From Escherichia phage AV101: 64,000 nucleotides of DNA. Below are positions 8,414 through 57,767 of this stretch, in pieces (the stretch's first letter is position 1; every line of letters starts with the position of its first letter). Below the pieces are notes generated by a model. It saw only the letters and a program-made list of their open reading frames with translations. It did not search any database and was not told the DNA's origin. Position numbers and translations under genes: made by a program. Location: sequence record OQ973471.1. One strand, given 5' to 3'.

Positions 8414-10360
8414 ATGGCACAGGAAGCAACGAACAATGATGTTGTCAAAGTTCTAGACAAGATCAAGGCGGAGATGATGCAGCGCAAACAACTCCGTGCT
8501 CAGAATGAAACCAACAGACAGCTTGACCGGATGAACAAGAATCTGGCCAAGCTGGAATCTGCCACTAAACAGGGCACCAAGGCCGAGTCCAAGCCATTTG
8601 AAATCCGTATCCCGACAGTCAATGAGATCGTCATGGGATTCGCTCGCATGTCTCCGATCTTCACCCGCGACTTCAGCGTATGGATGAAGGATACTGTCGA
8701 TGTGGGTAACGAAGGCAATCGGGAACTGGAGAATATCGCAGGCAAGATTGACCGCCTCGGTGAGATCACCCGCATGCCAACAGATGACACGTCCCTGGAG
8801 TATCTTAACCTGATCTCAGACCAGCTGAAGTCTGCCAATGATGACACCCTCAAGCGCATGGACGAGCAGAGCGTGTCTCTGGTCCGCGTAGGATCATTCT
8901 TGAACATGATCGACGGAGTGATGATCGAGGTTCGTGACGATGTTGCTGAACTGAAAAAGAACTCCGATGACAACCTTACTCGCTTGTCTAGCATTGAAAA
9001 CAAGATTGGGCGCACGGGCGGTCATATCGTTGGAGTTCTGACACGCATCTTTGATGAAGACCAGAAGTGGCGTGAGAAGGACGAGATGCGCCGTGGGGAA
9101 ACCGACAAAGAAACGGGTGGTCACCCTCAGGCGGGTTCTGTTATACCCAAAGACGATGACCAGAAAGACGATTCCTCCGGTATCGGGGCTGCTGTGGCGG
9201 CCATGCTTGGCCTGAATGCACTGAAGGGCTTCTTGCTCAAGCCGTTCAAGATCATCGGTGGTGTTGTCGGGACTTTCCTCGGCATGTTCTCCAAGCTGGG
9301 AGAAGGTATCACCAAACTTCTGGGTCCATTTGGGAAGGTGTTCAAGTTCCTGAAAGTCGGCCCACTGGCTCTCCTGTCTATGATCTGGGACTTCGGTAAA
9401 GGCTTCATTGATGCGAAGGAGATCCTGGGTAAAGGTGCTGTCACGATAGTTGACCGAGTACGGGCGGGGATATCAGAACTGGTTGGTGGATTTGGTGATC
9501 TATTTGACTGGGTGTCCAAGATCTTTGGCTTTGATACCAAGGCGGGAGAAACCCTGCGCAAATACACCCTCATGATCACTGAGGCTCCCGCTCGTTGGCT
9601 GAATGGTATTATCGACTGGATTAGCAACGACTTGTTTGCAGGGATCGGGAGAGACACGTCTCTTACGGATATCCCTGGCAAGTTAGCAGACAACCTACAG
9701 TCCGAGTTGATGAAGCTGGTAGACTGGATCACAGGGGGTATCAGTAGTGTGATCGACGAGGGCATGGGTGTGGCCAACAAGGTTATTGACGAAATCAAGA
9801 AGGGATTTGCCGAAAATGTGAAGAAACCTTTCTTCAACATGCTGAACACAATCACCAATGCGATGTTCGATATCGTTGACAAGTTCGTCAGCATCATCCC
9901 TGACGCTCTGGGTGGACAGGCTGCGAAGCAGAAGATGGATGAGGCTCGCCAGTCTATGCTGATTGACACTGATGAGAATCCGTCTCCTAATGTGACAGAG
10001 ACCCAGCAGCCACAGACGCCAGCACAACCGAACGTTGATCCACAAACGCTGACTCCAATACCTTCTGGTGTGTCTTCAGATTACAAGAATATGACTAATG
10101 ACCGCACCTCTCAGCTGAAAGCCGCGTATGGTTCTATCGGGGGTGGTACTCTGGGCGGGGCCATGCCATCACAAGGGAGGGCGCTGTCTAATATCGAGCA
10201 AGTACAAGGCGGCTATTCACCGCCTCCAGCCAGCGTCGTGATGCCAGTACAGCAGAATGTGGATGCTTCTAAGAGGATCAACACGACCAATAACTTCAAC
10301 AGCTCATCTCTTGAGCCTGAGAACAAAACAGATAATTCCCGCATCCTGTGGGAATGGTAA
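8414..10360 (+). CDS. tail tape-measure-like protein (gp29-like)
   Basis: 648 aa; N-terminal coiled coil, central Gly/hydrophobic repeats (GGVVGTFLGMF, FGKVFKFLKVGPLALL), Gln/Pro-rich C-terminus. Confidence 0.5.
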   Translation: MAQEATNNDVVKVLDKIKAEMMQRKQLRAQNETNRQLDRMNKNLAKLESATKQGTKAESKPFEIRIPTVNEIVMGFARMSPIFTRDFSVWMKDTVDVGNEGNRELENIAGKIDRLGEITRMPTDDTSLEYLNLISDQLKSANDDTLKRMDEQSVSLVRVGSFLNMIDGVMIEVRDDVAELKKNSDDNLTRLSSIENKIGRTGGHIVGVLTRIFDEDQKWREKDEMRRGETDKETGGHPQAGSVIPKDDDQKDDSSGIGAAVAAMLGLNALKGFLLKPFKIIGGVVGTFLGMFSKLGEGITKLLGPFGKVFKFLKVGPLALLSMIWDFGKGFIDAKEILGKGAVTIVDRVRAGISELVGGFGDLFDWVSKIFGFDTKAGETLRKYTLMITEAPARWLNGIIDWISNDLFAGIGRDTSLTDIPGKLADNLQSELMKLVDWITGGISSVIDEGMGVANKVIDEIKKGFAENVKKPFFNMLNTITNAMFDIVDKFVSIIPDALGGQAAKQKMDEARQSMLIDTDENPSPNVTETQQPQTPAQPNVDPQTLTPIPSGVSSDYKNMTNDRTSQLKAAYGSIGGGTLGGAMPSQGRALSNIEQVQGGYSPPPASVVMPVQQNVDASKRINTTNNFNSSSLEPENKTDNSRILWEW

Positions 10361-14072: not shown

Positions 14073-14188
14073 CAACGTTTCCTCTTAAAGGGGATGACCA
14101 GGGCTATGATGAGAAGCATAGCTGTAATCATCCCACATGCTATCAGACCGAAGGCGAACGACTTCAGAACAAACTCAATCAAATTCAT
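14072..14188 (-). CDS. 38-aa hydrophobic peptide (not in ORF track)
   Basis: ATG overlaps stop of upstream gene (ATGA) and its own stop overlaps next ATG (TGATG); translation MNLIEFVLKSFAFGLIACGMITAMLLIIALVIPFKRKR. Confidence 0.35.
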   Translation of the reverse strand: MNLIEFVLKSFAFGLIACGMITAMLLIIALVIPFKRKR

Positions 14189-44151: not shown

Positions 44152-46872
44152 TCAGATTTTAATCTGCATGTTGCCGCCCAGGGACTGCTCATACTCACTG
44201 TATGCGCTCTCCCCGTTGCTTGCAGCCCATTCGTCCGACTGCTGAGCACGAGCCAGAGTCATCAGGTTTGGTTCAGTCGGGTTGTATCCCTTGGACTTCG
44301 CATCCTGATACACGGTCTGCAGGTACTGGTTGGCACGGTCGATCTGCCCTTTGAACTCGCGGAAAGCCCCTTCGGTTGTGTTGCGGCGGAAGGTGATATC
44401 CCAATCGACGTTCAGGGTTTGCCCATCACGGCTTGCATAGATCTGCCAATCCAGGTCGCGACCTTTTGGAGCATTGTCGCGGATGGATCCGGCGTATGTC
44501 GCAAGGTCAACGCCAGTCTTCTTCGCAGTACTCGACTCTTTCTCCAGTCTCTCGGTTTCTTTGGACAGGATACCCAACATAAATTCATTAGTGCGGCGAT
44601 CCGCCATGTCGTACCCGCGCCAAAGGACTGAACCGTTGTCGTCAACAGAAATGTCGTCCAAGAATACTTGTTTCGGATTATGCGACGTGCTTTTCAGAGT
44701 TTGCATATTCCGAGATATCATTTCCATTTTAGAAGAAATTTCATCGATCACGGCCTGAACAATATCTTTCTTCAAAGTAAGTTCATATGTCTTCGGATTG
44801 TTCAGGGTACGACCTTTATTGGATACCATAGGCGTGATCGCCACTTTGCCTTTGTCGTAGTAATAGGTCACATTCGTGGTCAATACAGCACCATCATACT
44901 TCCCAGTTTTCGGGAAATTGACGCCAGACCAAGTGATGGACATACCGTTGACAGTCTCACCAAACACCATGGCGTTGCGTGGCATCTTCAGGGTTCCAGA
45001 GTTGACCAGATCAGCGCCTTGGGCATTCAGGTCGATAGAACCATAGATGGCCCCGGTAATACGATCTTTCAGCATCAGGGTCTTGTCGCCCTTCTCTGGG
45101 ATGATTTCCAGCGGGTGCTTGCCACGCGGAGGCTCTTTGATGAGTTCCAGCAGAGCAGTGTTCCCAGGCTTCACACGATTCAGGACAGCGTCGGACACTG
45201 TCAGAGTCCAGTTTGCGGTTTCCACATAACCCCAGCCCCGAGAACGGCGAATGGCTTTGATAGGATATGGAGCGCTTGTTGGCACTGCGCTAATTTCCCA
45301 TTTGCCAGTGTACTGGGTCTTGGCAACCTCAAAGATGGACGCAATTACCGCATTGGCGACGTCACGGGCGCTACCTTTGGCCACGTTCTCCTCTTCAGCA
45401 ATTTCGCTGAAAACTGAGTATTGAACGAAACCAGCGAGGACGTTTGTGAAGTTGACAACGATAACCAACCCGCCTGCCGTCGTGTAACGACCAGCGCCCA
45501 CGCGACGGATGTTTTCACCAGGAAGAATAGAAGTGTCCAGCCCAACGTTGGTATCAATGATACCCAGAACACGAGCGATGAAACCGCTGTCACGTAATTG
45601 ATCAACACTGGTTGCACTCTCGGTCGAATCCGATGCGGATTTAGACACTTTGTTCAACTTGATAGAGACAAGGGTTTCCCCGTTGACACCGATGATATCC
45701 CATTCAGTACCCTGCTCGTTCGAGGTGCGGGCAATCTTGCGCTTTGAATTGATGGCACCTTCGTAACGCCCGTTCTTGACCACAACAGAGGCAGTAGCAG
45801 CATCAGTAGCACTTGCTGCATTTGAAAAGTCTGGGTCAGAAATACTGATGTCGACGTCACCGTTTTGAGAACGCATGCGAACACCGTTTTTGAATCGTTC
45901 CACGTTTACTTCTCGAGCACCAAGTCGTTTGGCATCAATAACAGCAGTTCCAGAACCGATAATGTTGGCTGGGTTATTTCTGTCTGAACTGTTTTGAGAA
46001 CCTTTCCAAAATTTTGTGGACGCCGTGGTGAAATCATTCAGGATACTGATAGGGACTTGCGGTAATTTCAACTGACGAGCAATGAAATCAGCACTTTGCC
46101 CACGCACAGGTTTCTCATTCATGTATGCGCCAACATACACGCCCGGCTCATTGTAGTGGGGAGCGATATTTGCCGTGTTCATGCGGCCTCTCTCCTTACC
46201 AGCCCATAACAACATGGGCTGATCCCCGTTTGAAGTTAATTTCCATCCGTTGGAATTATCAACAGAAGATGACACACCCACATCCGGAGTATTGTTCTGA
46301 ACCGGAACGTCACCGACCTTGTCTGGATCATCCCAGGTGATACCCTGCATCTTCGGACCGTCGAATACCTGAGCCGGATCTTTACCCTTGCGGACCAGCC
46401 ACACATAACCACGGTCAGGGACAGGCGCGTAGGTCAGGTCCATGACATTCAGTTTCTGTTTCAGGCCGGACTGGCGGATGATCTTAGGAATCAGGGTCAT
46501 ACCGCGATCCAGCGCTTTCTTAGAGAAGTTGACAGCAAAGCCATCGATGGTCTTACCCAGAGGAGTCGCCATGAATTGTTTGGTCGCTTCGATCATGGAA
46601 GCGATAACGCGCATTGGGTTCTTGAAGCGAGCGATGGCGTCAGGATAGACGGAGCCGCGCTTCTGGCCGATGAAAACCTGACGAACACTCTTACCCAGCC
46701 CCTGAGGGGTATAGAACTGAATACGGTATTCCTTTTCATCTTCGTCGATGAAGGTGAAGAACACATCGCCTGCGTTCTTCTTGCCCATGGTCAGCTCATA
46801 CGGAGCGGAGTTGAACGCTTCGTCCAACTGATCTCTTTCCTGCATGAACTGGAGGAAACTTAGCTTTGACAT
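44152..46872 (-). CDS. large hypothetical protein (907 aa)
   Basis: Start refined to ATG 46872 with GGAG RBS; no clear catalytic motif. Confidence 0.5.
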   Translation of the reverse strand: MSKLSFLQFMQERDQLDEAFNSAPYELTMGKKNAGDVFFTFIDEDEKEYRIQFYTPQGLGKSVRQVFIGQKRGSVYPDAIARFKNPMRVIASMIEATKQFMATPLGKTIDGFAVNFSKKALDRGMTLIPKIIRQSGLKQKLNVMDLTYAPVPDRGYVWLVRKGKDPAQVFDGPKMQGITWDDPDKVGDVPVQNNTPDVGVSSSVDNSNGWKLTSNGDQPMLLWAGKERGRMNTANIAPHYNEPGVYVGAYMNEKPVRGQSADFIARQLKLPQVPISILNDFTTASTKFWKGSQNSSDRNNPANIIGSGTAVIDAKRLGAREVNVERFKNGVRMRSQNGDVDISISDPDFSNAASATDAATASVVVKNGRYEGAINSKRKIARTSNEQGTEWDIIGVNGETLVSIKLNKVSKSASDSTESATSVDQLRDSGFIARVLGIIDTNVGLDTSILPGENIRRVGAGRYTTAGGLVIVVNFTNVLAGFVQYSVFSEIAEEENVAKGSARDVANAVIASIFEVAKTQYTGKWEISAVPTSAPYPIKAIRRSRGWGYVETANWTLTVSDAVLNRVKPGNTALLELIKEPPRGKHPLEIIPEKGDKTLMLKDRITGAIYGSIDLNAQGADLVNSGTLKMPRNAMVFGETVNGMSITWSGVNFPKTGKYDGAVLTTNVTYYYDKGKVAITPMVSNKGRTLNNPKTYELTLKKDIVQAVIDEISSKMEMISRNMQTLKSTSHNPKQVFLDDISVDDNGSVLWRGYDMADRRTNEFMLGILSKETERLEKESSTAKKTGVDLATYAGSIRDNAPKGRDLDWQIYASRDGQTLNVDWDITFRRNTTEGAFREFKGQIDRANQYLQTVYQDAKSKGYNPTEPNLMTLARAQQSDEWAASNGESAYSEYEQSLGGNMQIKI

Positions 46873-46947
46873 TTTATATCTCCTGATGGAATTATGACGG
46901 TTTCTTCTAATTAGCGAAACCAAAAGAGAGCCGAAGCTCCCCTTATC

Positions 46948-53737: not shown

Positions 53738-54265
53738 TCAGATACCGATAAATTCATCAAAAGATCCAACAACCTTCTTCACCGAGATCTTGTCATTCTC
53801 AATCAGGAAGTTGCTGTCGTTTTTGGCTGCTGTGGCCCAGTCATCGGCAAGTTCGTTGCCTTCGTGCCCCGCATGACCCTTAACCCATTTTAGTTCAACA
53901 TCACAAATTGAACAAACGAGATCATAGATTCTGAACAGATCTTTGATGAGTTCAACGTTCTTTTCTGGGAAACCCTGATACTCCCACTTCGCTCGCCATT
54001 CGGTGACGCTCTTGATAGCATATTGGCTGTCAGACCAAATTGTTGCCTTTGGTATTCTGCGCTCACCCTTTCCTGAGAATGCCCACAGTAGCTTCAATGC
54101 GTTGGTCACACCCAACAACTCGGCGATATTGTTAGTGGACGGGGGAGGTAGATGACCGAAGAACACCTTCCATTGCATACCCGTTATTGGCCTGATGACA
54201 AATGCCCATCCTGCGGCCTGGTTGGTCTTCGGGTTAGAACCCCCGTCAGAATAAATTTCTATCAT
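53738..54265 (-). CDS. rnhA: ribonuclease HI (bacterial type)
   Basis: IYSDGGS, GWAFV, NNIAEL, IWSDSQY, VKGHAGHEGNELAD motifs; start refined to ATG 54265. Confidence 0.8.
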   Translation of the reverse strand: MIEIYSDGGSNPKTNQAAGWAFVIRPITGMQWKVFFGHLPPPSTNNIAELLGVTNALKLLWAFSGKGERRIPKATIWSDSQYAIKSVTEWRAKWEYQGFPEKNVELIKDLFRIYDLVCSICDVELKWVKGHAGHEGNELADDWATAAKNDSNFLIENDKISVKKVVGSFDEFIGI

Positions 54266-54267
54266 GA

Positions 54268-54275
54268 TATAAATA
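54268..54275 (+). promoter_or_regulatory. T4-type late promoter motif TATAAATA
   Basis: Exact TATAAATA 36 nt before ATG 54311. Confidence 0.55.
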
Positions 54276-54310
54276 TCCCAAACTGGTTTTATAGAAAGAG
54301 GAATGAAACT

Positions 54311-55078
54311 ATGGCACCCCGCGCATATCGTTTCAGTCTCACCGCCCCGCAGATTGAGCAATTGCTCCTCTCTATCTATGATGCTATCAAGTCAGAAGAT
54401 ATCATCTATGATTATGCTGCAGGTGGGACTGCTGGACAAGTCGCAGCAGCTTCTGCTGTCAAGAACATGTGGTTGAAGCTCAACGAGATGGTGACAGGCC
54501 AAGGTCTCAAAGATGCCATCAACGATGCAGAAGACAGCAACGTGTTCACCGACTATTATAAGTCTTTACTGGATCGCGAAGGTTGGAAATTTATTGGATC
54601 TCCAGCAGATGAACTTCAGCGAGGCGACATCGATACCTCGAACTTCAAAGGTGGTGAGGTCATTCTACTTCAGAAGAACGCTTCGGGCAACCCAGAATTC
54701 CAATACTGGAAGCGAACCCCTGTTGCTGGGGGTGATCCTACCTTTGCATGGGCTTCGGTCTATGAAGGGAACTCCAATGATTCCAGCATAGAGATTCCCG
54801 TGGTTGGCACCAGCGTACTCAAGGACATCCCCAAGGCACTCTTCCATATGATCGAGTTCAGAGTGCATGTCTACGATGAGACACTGGGTCATTGGCAAGA
54901 CACCGACGGGAAGGTAGGGTATCGTGGCGAGGATCTGATCTACAGTGTCTACAACCATATTCAGACCAAACCTCTCGCCACCATTGACTTCAGCCAAGAT
55001 ACGGACAATATGACGGTTTCTGTGACGTCGTTGGAACCGAATGTCAAGTGCCATCTGTCCTTCGTTGCGGGTTACTAA
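54311..55078 (+). CDS. late protein of unknown function
   Basis: TATAAATA at 54268-54275 and GAGGA RBS precede ATG 54311; only plus-strand gene in a minus-strand block. Confidence 0.5.
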   Translation: MAPRAYRFSLTAPQIEQLLLSIYDAIKSEDIIYDYAAGGTAGQVAAASAVKNMWLKLNEMVTGQGLKDAINDAEDSNVFTDYYKSLLDREGWKFIGSPADELQRGDIDTSNFKGGEVILLQKNASGNPEFQYWKRTPVAGGDPTFAWASVYEGNSNDSSIEIPVVGTSVLKDIPKALFHMIEFRVHVYDETLGHWQDTDGKVGYRGEDLIYSVYNHIQTKPLATIDFSQDTDNMTVSVTSLEPNVKCHLSFVAGY

Positions 55079-56793
55079 ACCTCAAACACGGCATCAGTGA
55101 ACCAAGCGGGGAAGAACTCTGGGTTGCGCATCATCAGTGATTCGAAAGAAGAATCAAGGATGTACGTCGCAGCCCAGTCATTCACGCCCCTGACCGAACG
55201 CCCACACATCTGAACGATACGCAGTACCGCCATCCTGAAGTACGCCGATGGGTCCACACTGTTGACGTGGGCCACCAGAGGATCACCAAGGTAATCGTAT
55301 GGCACCTTGATCAAGATCTGAAATCGACTATAATCGCCTTTGAAGTCATACCCCTCTTCCATGGCCGGACTGGCGATGACACAAGGTGTCTTCGTCCTGA
55401 ACGCGTGTTCCATGATGTCCATCAGAGCCTTACGAGTACGAGGAACGTGAATCATATTCCGGTACTTACTGAACTTTTGTAGAGCCAGGGCGCGGTCATA
55501 ACTGACTGTGTGAATGATGCCAGACTGCCCAGGGTGGAATGCGATGATTTCATCCACGTATTCAGCCAGCTTCTTCATCTCGTAGTCACCCATGTTCGCC
55601 GTCATCTTCATGATGGGCATGTAGTTGACTTTCCGGTTCTCAATCGGGATAGGGTTGCCGATCTGAATCTTGTGGTACTCACCCTCGCGGATACCCAGTG
55701 ACCTGGCGTACGAGTCAATCCCACAAATGGTCGCCGACATGTGGACGTGGTAGTCACCCTTGCGGAAAAGACCGAACTGGGATACATCAGAGGCGATGAC
55801 AGGCTTGAACTGAATCATACCCTTGTCCTTCTCCTGTACGATGAAAGTGCTGGCGTTGGTCTGCCCCATGATACCACAGTAGTCGCTGAGGTTGTGAAGA
55901 GTATCAATAATATCAGACAGCTTCATCACCTGGGCTTCAGTCAGGCGCTCGTCTTCTACCAGTTCCTCAAGAGTTTCCAGCAGAGATTCAACCTTGCCGT
56001 GTAGTTCATCAAATATCGCATGCATCTCACCAGACAGGGAATACAGCTTGCCCAATTCATAGTTCTCTGTGCGGATGATGATATCCTTGATGGTCTCCAC
56101 GATAGGCACTCCCTCGGGGATCGTAAGCAGCCCTTCCACAGCCTTTGTGCTGTATTCCATGATAGTATGCTCTAGGAGCGTAGAGGGCATTTTATGACAC
56201 TCGTCAAGGATCAGCATATCGGCGCGGTTTTCCGGCTTCATACAGATCGTCGTGCACATCTCCACCATCATGGCGGCGTTGGTGCAGCGCAGGGAGGAGA
56301 CGTCGGTCCACTGTCGACGCGCCTGAACATATGGGCAACGATTCTTACTACAGTGGCCATCACGGCATGCCATACGACACTGAATGGCGTTGTAGTATAG
56401 GTCGGGACTGATGTGGCAACGATAGTTCTTCTTGCCCTTCAGGATGTCTATCGCCACGGCTTTCTCTGCTGCATACTGATCCTGTAAACCTTTGGTCGGC
56501 GTCGTGATAGACGTGCGAAACTGACCATACGGGTTGTGCTCAAGAACCAAATGGCGAAGCACGTTATGGATGGTAGTGCCGATGAGGGATTTACCCACAC
56601 CAGTCGGAGCCTCGATGATCACGTGTTTGAATTTCTTATTCACAAGGGCATCAATGGCTTCAACGATGCACTCCATCTGGCCGGGGTTGGCGGTGTCATA
56701 CGGGAAGAACTCAGTGGCAAGAGACTTGATGCGGTCTATGCTGACTGGTCCGACGCCGCCAAGCGCCTTGGTATATTGGTTGAATGCTGTCAC
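55075..56793 (-). CDS. DinG/XPD-family Fe-S DNA helicase
   Basis: Walker A APTGVGKS, DECH box, four-Cys cluster (C..C..C..C between helicase motifs); GTG start with AGGAGGAAG RBS. Confidence 0.65.
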   Translation of the reverse strand: MTAFNQYTKALGGVGPVSIDRIKSLATEFFPYDTANPGQMECIVEAIDALVNKKFKHVIIEAPTGVGKSLIGTTIHNVLRHLVLEHNPYGQFRTSITTPTKGLQDQYAAEKAVAIDILKGKKNYRCHISPDLYYNAIQCRMACRDGHCSKNRCPYVQARRQWTDVSSLRCTNAAMMVEMCTTICMKPENRADMLILDECHKMPSTLLEHTIMEYSTKAVEGLLTIPEGVPIVETIKDIIIRTENYELGKLYSLSGEMHAIFDELHGKVESLLETLEELVEDERLTEAQVMKLSDIIDTLHNLSDYCGIMGQTNASTFIVQEKDKGMIQFKPVIASDVSQFGLFRKGDYHVHMSATICGIDSYARSLGIREGEYHKIQIGNPIPIENRKVNYMPIMKMTANMGDYEMKKLAEYVDEIIAFHPGQSGIIHTVSYDRALALQKFSKYRNMIHVPRTRKALMDIMEHAFRTKTPCVIASPAMEEGYDFKGDYSRFQILIKVPYDYLGDPLVAHVNSVDPSAYFRMAVLRIVQMCGRSVRGVNDWAATYILDSSFESLMMRNPEFFPAWFTDAVFEV

Positions 56794-56843
56794 TTTCTTC
56801 CTCCTATGGGATTCGCCTATAGTTTACCCGATCCCCAAGAACG

Positions 56844-56879
56844 AAAAAGCCGGAGTACAATGCTCCGGCTTTCTCTTTT
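56844..56879. terminator. bidirectional terminator hairpin between HU and helicase genes
   Basis: Stem GCCGGAG/CTCCGGC, 7-nt loop, A-run upstream and T-run downstream. Confidence 0.6.
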
Positions 56880-56922: not shown

Positions 56923-57201
56923 TTACTTGCCGTTGGCAGCGTTCTTCAGACCTTCGCCCACTTTGAATTTCACAACGTTTTTCGCCGCGATCTGAATGGT
57001 CTGGCCGTTCAGAGGGTTGCGGCCTTCACGCGCTTCTTGGTGTTTCACTTCGAACGCACCGAAGCCGACCAGCTGTACAGATGCGCCTGCAGCAACTGCA
57101 GTTTTAACACCGTCGATAAAGGATGCCACTACTTTCTCCGCTTCGCCTTTGGTGATATTCTGGGTCGAAGCAATGTGGGCAACAAATTCAGTACGATTCA
57201 T
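56923..57201 (-). CDS. HU/IHF-family DNA-binding protein
   Basis: Strong HU signature (VQLVGFGAFEV...GRNPLNGQTIQIAAKNVVKFK), 92 aa. Confidence 0.85.
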   Translation of the reverse strand: MNRTEFVAHIASTQNITKGEAEKVVASFIDGVKTAVAAGASVQLVGFGAFEVKHQEAREGRNPLNGQTIQIAAKNVVKFKVGEGLKNAANGK

Positions 57202-57326: not shown

Positions 57327-57767
57327 TCATATTTGCTCCGTTTGTTTCTCAACGCCCAGTGCGGCGGCATAGATACCACGAGCCATGCGATCATCACAAA
57401 ATCCATGCGTGAATAATCCAGCAATGGCATCAAGGCGTTCCTGTGTTGGTGTGACAGGCACAGACGCCGTTTGAACTTCAGTCTTTTCGGTGCCTTCCGG
57501 TTTCATCAAGACCTCCATTTCTTGACGGCTAACAATAATGGTTTCTACCTTATCTTCATCGATCAACATTTCGTTCAGAAGATCGTATCCCAACACTTGT
57601 GTATCGCCGATATATGTTTTCGCGTTCAGTTCTGCTTCGATACTTAACACCCTCTGAGCTGTAAGGCCACCAGAGGAGAACGGTACTGGATAGAAGGCGG
57701 AACGCACTTGGGCACACCCATTTACGCTGTAACGAACCAGCAAGACATCACACCATACGCCAGCCAT
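57327..57767 (-). CDS. hypothetical protein
   Basis: GGAGG RBS; 146 aa. Confidence 0.4.
   Translation of the reverse strand: MAGVWCDVLLVRYSVNGCAQVRSAFYPVPFSSGGLTAQRVLSIEAELNAKTYIGDTQVLGYDLLNEMLIDEDKVETIIVSRQEMEVLMKPEGTEKTEVQTASVPVTPTQERLDAIAGLFTHGFCDDRMARGIYAAALGVEKQTEQI

Follow-up and report, generated by a model that had tools for sequence, protein, structure and literature searches.

Annotation and identity of the helicase gene

The coding sequence at 55075..56793 raised the question of which helicase it encodes, whether this helicase carries an iron-sulphur cluster and what it contributes beside T4-type replication genes. The window, a stretch of 64,000 nucleotides from Escherichia phage AV101 (OQ973471.1), was about 97% identical at the DNA level to Enterobacter phage fGh-Ecl02 and belongs to an Ackermannviridae (Vi1-like) phage. 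The product is a small helicase of the XPD/Rad3/DinG family (SF2B), probably with a [4Fe-4S] cluster and 5'→3' movement and with a possible accessory role in replication or recombination.

55075..56793, minus strand, coding sequence of the helicase, 572 aa, XPD/Rad3/DinG family (SF2B), PHROG 2488

The reading frame, its length and its GTG start were given correctly in the initial annotation, which had left the strand unstated. A survey of related phages, proposed there as a check, identified the helicase (PHROG 2488) as a core gene of Ackermannviridae phages. Hundreds of records name it 'DNA helicase', 'ATP-dependent helicase', 'DinG' or 'Rad3-related', with the DinG and Rad3-related labels used in a few. 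In the papers searched on Ackermannviridae, the protein was labelled at most 'putative ATP-dependent helicase', at the level of genome announcements, and no description as DinG, XPD or Fe-S protein was found there. The helicase identity is correct but already known; the gene is ordinary and not surprising.

A link to thymidine hypermodification, prompted by the presence of the helicase in both Ackermannviridae and PhiW-14, was rejected. In tblastn searches, the aGPT-Pplase gene occurred together with the helicase only within Ackermannviridae and an Ackermannviridae-like Vibrio clade, and the Rhizobium, halovirus and Prevotella sequences that carry the helicase lacked it. The overlap of the two genes is due to shared ancestry and is not an independent association.

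Helicase motifs and family assignment

The SF2 motor motifs Q, I, II, III and VI were all present and nearly invariant over 148 homologues, a set with a median identity to the query of 29%. The following motifs and domains were assigned:

56677..56706, minus strand, Q motif region (F30 ... G38 Q39), from the alignment of homologues
56587..56610, minus strand, motif I/Walker A APTGVGKS, aa 62-69, G67 and K68 in 148/148 homologues
56194..56205, minus strand, motif II/Walker B DECH, aa 197-200, D, E and H in 148/148
55759..56166, minus strand, approximate Arch-domain insertion between motifs II and III, aa ~210-345, from AlphaFold secondary structure with inferred boundaries
55729..55737, minus strand, motif III SAT, aa 353-355, invariant in the smaller alignment, S in 144/148 and T in 143/148
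55099..55401, minus strand, Helicase_C_2 match, aa 465-565 (Pfam PF13307, 4.8e-12, 46.7 bits)
55189-55212, minus strand, motif VI Q528xxGRxxR535, with Q528, G531, R532 and R535 in 148/148

The Walker A sequence and the DECH box reported initially were thus located at aa 62-69 and aa 197-200. At the third position of motif II, 72 of the 148 homologues had C and 63 had A, giving the family motif DE[CA]H. F30, G38 and Q39 of the Q motif were invariant in the smaller homologue alignment; the larger set retained Q39 in 147/148 and F30 in 138/148.

The HMM search that had been suggested with two Pfam models gave a divided result. Helicase_C_2 (PF13307) matched the query with 46.7 bits (cut-off 25.3) as well as 28/28 aligned relatives. 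DEAD_2 (PF06733) did not match the query at E ≤ 1 and matched 4/28 relatives, with a best value of 2e-5. This miss looks like a limit of model sensitivity on a divergent, shortened region, which is covered by the structure comparison. PHROG 2488 'DNA helicase' matched at 1.6e-259, with residues 19-572 aligned to profile positions 3-579 of 579. For the family profile itself, the E values were 3.2e-19 with E. coli DinG and about 3e-14 with T. acidophilum XPD. With Helicase_C_2 above its cut-off and the conserved cysteine set described below, the original assignment to the Rad3/XPD/DinG family was upheld.

The AlphaFold model of the helicase reached a pLDDT of 88.7 and a pTM of 0.87. All top 40 Foldseek matches belonged to the XPD/DinG family, including E. 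coli DinG with 3e-26 and a TM score of 0.66, and two independent structure searches with the predicted fold were topped only by XPD/DinG-type structures. The four-domain fold of the XPD/DinG type and the Arch insertion between motifs II and III were present in the predicted model, the latter with long helices at 226-241, 255-279 and 286-311 and a beta hairpin at 316-331. Models of individual cellular groups scored low: NCBIfam DinG (NF008729) 65.5 against a cut-off of 598, YoaA (NF053712) 57.8 against 680 and TIGR00604 rad3 24.1 against 247. Because the DinG, YoaA and Rad3 models remained far below their cut-offs, the protein, judged by sequence, is a helicase within the XPD/Rad3/DinG superfamily and not an orthologue of any named or characterised cellular group.

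Gene neighbourhood and proposed role

Three genes lie near the helicase gene:

56923..57201, minus strand, upstream gene for an HU/IHF-type DNA-binding protein, 92 aa (Pfam Bac_DNA_binding, 6.1e-30)
54311..55078, plus strand, convergent gene, 255 aa, PHROG 3833, 'structural protein' in some records
53738..54265, minus strand, downstream gene for an RNase HI-type ribonuclease, 175 aa from an internal ATG (Pfam RNase_H, 4.6e-25)

The HU/IHF-type gene held the same position in relatives, where it is named 'transcription factor' or 'DNA binding protein', and the RNase HI-type neighbour is labelled 'ribonuclease HI' in fGh-Ecl02. The stop of the convergent gene overlaps the helicase stop, a 4-nt overlap that annotations of relatives show too. 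The window as a whole encodes a gp41-like helicase, gp61 primase, ligase, NrdA, gp46/47, gp55 and RNase HI. The T4-like replication block recognised initially was confirmed as a set of T4-type replication and recombination genes, but its phage belongs to the Ackermannviridae and is not T4-like proper. The gene order helicase, RNase H, late sigma factor and SbcD was found again in a Vibrio phage at 45% identity. More distant helicase homologues adjoined genes for exonuclease, primase, ligase, dCMP deaminase and PolA. As a functional clue, the neighbourhood was not conserved outside Ackermannviridae-like phages.

The helicases annotated in the closest complete genome were only a UvsW-like, a gp41-like and the XPD/DinG-type protein. 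A tblastn search with T4 Dda against the window and this genome gave best E values of 0.26-0.6 in unrelated P-loop regions, and no Dda homologue was detected. The contrast with T4 had originally been drawn for both Dda and UvsW; it held for Dda only, since a UvsW-like helicase is present. Because UvsW-like and gp41-like helicases are present and Dda was not detectable, a Dda-like accessory 5'-3' role is plausible. The protein may serve as an accessory replication or recombination helicase of the phage T4-type machinery and might act on forks, D-loops or R-loops in recombination-dependent replication. In that case it would perhaps stand in for Dda, an accessory helicase of 5'→3' polarity. This putative role in vivo is deduced from the neighbouring genes and the absence of Dda.

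Instead of Dda-like help at forks or in recombination, the main task of the helicase could be the removal of R-loops and RNA-DNA hybrids together with RNase HI, to clear transcription-replication conflicts or to process replication primers. The RNase HI-type gene follows shortly after the helicase gene on its strand, the two genes are still close together in the Vibrio phage at 45% identity, and R-loops and D-loops are known substrates of E. coli DinG. However, the convergent gene between helicase and RNase HI means that they do not form one operon, and in the Aeromonas, Acinetobacter, Rhizobium and halovirus homologues the two are no longer linked. The phage also possesses a UvsW-like 'RNA-DNA and DNA-DNA helicase'. 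R-loop removal as the main task is considered unlikely, and an accessory role in replication or recombination is favoured.

Cysteine module and predicted Fe-S cluster

56335..56418, minus strand, compact four-cysteine module (C126, C139 or C143, C148, C153), predicted [4Fe-4S] domain in motor domain 1, from conservation counts and the DinG alignment

A four-cysteine cluster between the helicase motifs had been reported initially. Eight cysteines were present between Walker A and DECH (C126, 139, 143, 148, 153, 170, 180 and 184), of which four were conserved. Loss of the cysteines in orthologues had been named as evidence against the assignment, and the contrary was observed: C126 and C153 were each retained in 148/148 homologues, C148 in 142/148 and C139 in 126/148. 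C143, C170, C180 and C184 showed no conservation across the 148 homologues. At least four cysteines were found within the C126..C153 segment in 143/148 homologues. In the aligned sequences, conservation of the cysteine set is far beyond chance.

C143, C148 and C153 of the query aligned with C194, C199 and C205 of E. coli DinG. The commonest spacing in the family was C-x15-C-x4-C-x5-C, in which the last three cysteines are spaced as in DinG. Since the query holds five candidate ligands, with both C139 and C143, its ligand set is ambiguous. The module showed the lowest model confidence (pLDDT 71-75), as expected because the site was modelled without a cofactor. By homology, the four cysteines would hold a [4Fe-4S] cluster, and ATP hydrolysis would drive the enzyme 5'→3' along single-stranded DNA. 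The single strand is predicted to thread between the Arch domain, the Fe-S domain and motor domain 1, with the Fe-S domain acting as a putative strand-separating wedge.

With the same fold and helicase function, the four cysteines might bind zinc or form a structural knuckle, the Fe-S domain being reduced as in CasDinG. The module is very compact: C126 to C153 covers 28 residues, where that of E. coli DinG takes up about 86. CasDinG structures were among the top structural matches, the PADLOC type IV DinG model matched full length with 1.1e-51, and the FeS domain of CasDinG structures is described as vestigial (PMC10450177). Vestigial FeS domains have lost cysteines, however, whereas at least four were kept here in all but five of the 148 homologues. 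The four cysteines are located at the canonical insertion site, in motor domain 1 between motifs Ia and II, three of them align with known cluster ligands of DinG, and the C-x4-C-x5-C spacing of DinG was found in many members. A CCCC motif at the insertion site is the hallmark of cluster-binding DinG members in a review covering bacterial members only (PMC11981726). A zinc site or structural knuckle is thus quite improbable, and the module is read as a predicted [4Fe-4S] domain.

Translation start and upstream signals

56791..56793, minus strand, GTG start codon of the helicase gene, first start codon of the ORF
56797..56805, minus strand, Shine-Dalgarno sequence AGGAGGAAG of the helicase gene, read off the sequence
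56846..56872, minus strand, G+C-rich hairpin with a T-run after it, terminator of the HU-like gene that lies upstream, from pattern scan, compensatory changes and annotation

The minus-strand sequence before the helicase start reads AGGAGGAAGAAA, followed by GTG. AGGAGG was read at 56800-56805 with a 6-nt spacer to the GTG, in agreement with the strong ribosome binding site proposed before. The AGGAG core was invariant in a five-phage alignment of the helicase upstream region. The GTG start was kept in Marshall, EP75, XDRKpn-1 and Serratia phage Kevin, representing four Ackermannviridae lineages, and the helicase homologue of Vibrio phage D533 starts with ATG. GTG starts were rare, with 4/141 CDS counted in a related genome. 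Translation of the helicase gene has signals of its own: the Shine-Dalgarno sequence is strong, and the GTG is conserved and locally rare. The tuned low expression hinted at initially would be a possible effect of this GTG.

The next start in the helicase ORF is an ATG at codon 40, and the corresponding 533-aa protein is annotated in several public records (phages EP75, XDRKpn-1 and T751). If this were the real product, the GTG and the Shine-Dalgarno sequence would be incidental. The shorter form would drop F30 and Q39 of the Q motif, although these residues before M40 are conserved in 138/148 and 147/148 homologues, respectively. AGGAGG 6 nt before the GTG and the GTG itself are both kept across four lineages, and residues 11-60 were modelled confidently by AlphaFold (pLDDT 89-97). 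Initiation at codon 40 is thus very improbable, and the 533-aa entries in several records ought to be lengthened to the GTG start.

The pattern scan placed the hairpin at 56846..56872 on the plus strand. Pairing in the terminator stem was maintained by compensatory changes in five phages, and a terminator upstream of the helicase gene is already annotated in phage Marshall. This terminator sets the HU-like gene apart from the helicase gene. A scan for sigma-70-like promoters in front of the helicase gene gave no match. The conserved upstream block CGGGTAAACTATA was tried as a recurring promoter motif and rejected, with 7 matches against 8.1 expected in the window, which is not above chance.

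Significance

The main value of the findings lies in a better annotation: in place of the generic 'DNA helicase', the label can name the XPD/DinG family and a predicted [4Fe-4S] cluster. Current understanding is not challenged. If the cluster is confirmed, the protein would be among the smallest XPD-type helicases, convenient phage genetics would be available for Fe-S function in the family, and one would learn in addition how T4-type replisomes cope without Dda. A further, speculative reading is that a compact viral XPD/DinG clade replaces Dda in Dda-less T4-type replisomes, and that a redox- and iron-sensitive [4Fe-4S] cluster and the conserved weak GTG couple recombination-dependent replication to the iron or oxidative state of the host. 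This combination is distinctly unlikely. Were Dda replacement and iron/redox coupling true, a lytic phage would provide a minimal and tractable Fe-S helicase model of 572 aa that can be read out genetically.

Comparison with known systems

Among solved structures, E. coli DinG (PDB 6fwr/6fws) matched best by sequence; it was also the best Foldseek match and shares the SF2B architecture. Identity to the phage helicase was about 16-18%, and DinG is longer, with 716 against 572 aa. The distance from the first cysteine to the next candidate ligand is 12 to 16 residues in the phage helicase (C139 or C143), compared with 73 in DinG. Finegoldia magna DinG (PDB 9kqh, 'DNA 5'-3' helicase') aligned structurally over 486 residues with 16% identity and comprises 738 aa with extra regions. 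Archaeal XPD and eukaryotic Rad3-XPD (2vl7, 3crv, 2vsf/4a15, 5fmf) showed 13-19% identity; in contrast to Rad3-XPD, there was no hint of TFIIH or NER partners for the phage helicase.

Type IV-A CasDinG (Csf4; 8e2w, 7xf0, 8s35) gave strong structural matches, but its FeS domain, vestigial according to PMC10450177, differs from the four conserved cysteines of the phage helicase. A defence or counter-defence helicase akin to type IV CRISPR CasDinG, rather than a replication protein, is extremely improbable: PADLOC PDLC01439 (typeIV_DinG, 'CAS-IV-A associated') matched residues 23-552 at the E value given above, which mirrors the shared family only, and against it stand the curated Csf4 model TIGR03117 with 11.8 versus a cut-off of 400, neighbours (HU, RNase HI, gp55 and gp47/46) with no Cas gene nearby, and vertical inheritance as a core gene of a lytic phage family.

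T4 Dda, which serves a T4-type replication and recombination system as an accessory helicase of 5'→3' polarity, is a possible functional analogue. It belongs to another superfamily, SF1B, has no sequence similarity to the phage helicase and is without an Fe-S cluster. The viral homologues belong to the same family over their full length, with 25-47% identity and the same conserved cysteines. Those already annotated include PHROG 2488, the 'Rad3-related DNA helicase' of HF1-group haloviruses, and the helicases of Delftia phage PhiW-14 and of Vibrio, Aeromonas, Acinetobacter and Rhizobium phages. They differ from the present helicase in gene neighbourhood and replisome, with Rhizobium phages using a PolA-type polymerase.

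Family assignment of the helicase

The helicase was encoded at 55075-56793 by an open reading frame of 572 aa with a GTG start, in agreement with the initial annotation; as read from the window sequence, it lies on the minus strand. The Walker A motif APTGVGKS and the DECH box, both proposed there, were located at aa 62-69 and aa 197-200. The assignment to the XPD/Rad3/DinG type was supported by a domain search and by cysteine conservation, the two tests suggested for it. Pfam Helicase_C_2 scored 46.7 bits, above its gathering score of 25.3, but DEAD_2, the other family named for the search, gave no match to the query and matched 4 of 28 relatives. The generic Pfam families ResIII and DEAD also matched. 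PHROG 2488, 'DNA helicase', matched over the full length (1.6e-259). An AlphaFold2 model from the 28-sequence alignment was confident (pLDDT 88.7, pTM 0.87). All of the top 40 Foldseek matches were XPD/DinG family members, with E. coli DinG first at 3e-26. The family profile matched E. coli DinG at 3.2e-19 and T. acidophilum XPD at ~3e-14. NCBIfam models for DinG, YoaA and Rad3 matched weakly and far under their cut-offs, which, judged by sequence models, makes the helicase a superfamily member and an orthologue of no named cellular group.

Cysteine module

Eight cysteines lie between Walker A and DECH (126, 139, 143, 148, 153, 170, 180 and 184). The four-cysteine cluster described initially holds for the conserved residues but not for the total. 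C126, C139, C148 and C153 were invariant in the 28-sequence alignment, with identity down to 36%. An exhaustive profile search with a cut-off of E<=1e-3 returned 14,766 cluster representatives, of which 4,291 reached E<=1e-30; conservation was counted over the query and 147 full-length representatives (148 sequences, median identity to the query 29%). C126 and C153 were retained in 148/148 sequences, C148 in 142/148 and C139 in 126/148, with at least four cysteines within the C126..C153 segment in 143/148. Lack of cysteine conservation, named at the outset as evidence against the assignment, was thus not seen for these four positions. C143, C170, C180 and C184 showed no conservation across the same set.

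HMMER paired C143, C148 and C153 with C194, C199 and C205 of E. coli DinG, which together with C120 are its cluster ligands. The commonest family spacing was C-x15-C-x4-C-x5-C, and its last three spacings equal those of DinG. C139 and C143 are alternative second-ligand positions one helical turn apart and are both cysteine in enterobacterial Ackermannviridae, so the exact ligand set of this helicase is ambiguous. Its C126-C153 module spans 28 residues and is unusually compact. Binding of an Fe-S cluster is strongly predicted from these residues.

Start codon and upstream region

The strong ribosome-binding site reported before the GTG was present: on the minus strand, AGGAGGAAGAAA precedes the GTG and supplies a strong Shine-Dalgarno sequence spaced 6 nt from it. 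No start codon comes earlier in the frame than this GTG, and the next candidate is an ATG at codon 40; F30 (conserved in 138/148) and the invariant Q-motif residue Q39 lie 5' of that ATG. GTG and Shine-Dalgarno were kept in Marshall, EP75 (Kuttervirus), a Klebsiella phage and a Serratia Miltonvirus; a Vibrio phage homologue starts with ATG. In the closest relative, the 141 CDS annotated over 100 kb comprised 135 with an ATG start, four with GTG and two with TTG. The GTG start is thus unusual and conserved.

Some records begin at the internal ATG and give 533 aa, namely those of EP75 (L002, 3121-4722), XDRKpn-1 (L003, 3121-4722) and Klebsiella phage T751 (P0012). This drops ~40 N-terminal residues, including F30 and Q39. 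Since the conserved GTG with its Shine-Dalgarno lies 120 nt 5' of that ATG, these starts are probably misannotated.

A block, TTTTTCGTTCTTGGGGATCGGGTAAACTATAGG, at 56806-56845 (minus) between a terminator hairpin (56846-56872) and the Shine-Dalgarno was kept in four Ackermannviridae lineages. It did not fit the sigma-70 consensus, and copies elsewhere in the window did not exceed chance, which rules out a repeated promoter motif. A role as a promoter or regulatory site specific to this gene is possible. Between phages, compensatory base changes were seen in the terminator stem.

Relatives and neighbouring genes

Helicase gene DNA was 98% identical in Escherichia phages ZQ1, A221 and PC3 and Salmonella phages Marshall and Maynard, and 94% identical in Shigella phage Ag3, all of them Ackermannviridae (Vi1-like). 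The entire window aligned with Enterobacter phage fGh-Ecl02 at ~97%. The window also held genes for a gp41-like helicase, gp61 primase, DNA ligase, NrdA, gp46/gp47, gp55 and an RNase HI. The initial term 'T4-like replication block' is therefore fair for gene content, but by its relatives the phage belongs to Ackermannviridae and is not T4-like proper. In a published comparison of Vi01-like phages, the helicase appears among the shared genes as 'putative ATP-dependent helicase', in a gene order matching the window (PMC10892097).

Genes around the helicase and conserved large proteins in the window
8414-10360, plus: 648 aa, PHROG 3799; noted for fGh-Ecl02 as a putative tape measure protein
44152-46923, minus: 923 aa, PHROG 3867
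53738-54361, minus: RNase HI-type RNase H (Pfam RNase_H 4.6e-25)
54311-55078, plus: convergent gene, PHROG 3833; 'structural protein' in some records
56923-57201, minus: HU/IHF-type DNA-binding protein directly upstream (Pfam Bac_DNA_binding 6.1e-30); 'transcription factor' in relatives
57327-57767, minus: 146 aa, two genes upstream; DUF7425 (3.4e-46)

Stop codons of the helicase and the convergent gene overlap at 55075-55078, a 4-nt overlap also annotated in relatives. For the RNase HI, the mechanical frame from TTG gives 207 aa; relatives annotate an internal ATG (175 aa, 53738-54265). T4 rnh is a FEN-like 5' nuclease, unlike RNase HI. Relatives carry thymidine-hypermodification genes (aGPT-Pplase, PLP enzyme), and the HU-like protein TF1 of phage SPO1 prefers hydroxymethyluracil DNA; by this analogy modified DNA might be what the HU/IHF-type protein is adapted to. 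A hypermodification link for the helicase itself was rejected, as it occurs together with aGPT-Pplase only inside the Ackermannviridae-like clade.

Two small indels separated the window from fGh-Ecl02 (L009). At window ~1732-1741, ~0.9 kb with two small genes (L009 40487-41390) was missing, and at ~14074-14079, ~0.2 kb with one small gene (L009 27951-28156). This suggests accessory-gene turnover among near-identical phages.

Possible role

By family, the helicase should be a 5'->3' enzyme acting from single-stranded DNA. The closest complete genome was annotated with three helicases, UvsW-like, gp41-like and that of PHROG 2488. A tblastn search with Dda from the T4 record matched neither that genome nor the window. 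The most economical reading is an accessory replication or recombination enzyme in the Dda niche. The adjacent RNase HI gene keeps a role in R-loop processing open; a Vibrio phage again had the order helicase, RNase H, late sigma factor, SbcD. Distant homologues in Acinetobacter and Rhizobium phages adjoined exonuclease, primase, ligase, dCMP deaminase and PolA genes, and those of an Aeromonas phage and a halovirus lay among unannotated genes. These other types of replication and nucleotide-metabolism module support a general role in DNA metabolism and give no more specific clue.

Comparison with known systems

The initial observation was confirmed and the family assignment supported, for a gene already annotated in public records. 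Relatives label it 'DNA helicase', 'ATP-dependent helicase' or, occasionally, 'ATP-dependent DNA helicase DinG', and related viral genes are named simply 'Rad3-related helicase' (PMC7230728). It has long been annotated as part of the core gene set of a well-sampled phage family, and its product falls within a well-known helicase family. No paper characterising it was found in the literature searched. Useful additions are the Fe-S refinement, a corrected start for some of the records and the finding that Dda is absent.

Membership of a type IV CRISPR system is very unlikely, as the gene had no Cas genes around it and failed the curated Csf4 model; other Csf4 models matched weakly. PADLOC model PDLC01439 (typeIV_DinG, 'CAS-IV-A associated') matched the helicase over its full length (1.1e-51), which we read as family resemblance only. 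Some type IV-A CRISPR-linked helicases may be members or descendants of this clade, which is mostly viral.
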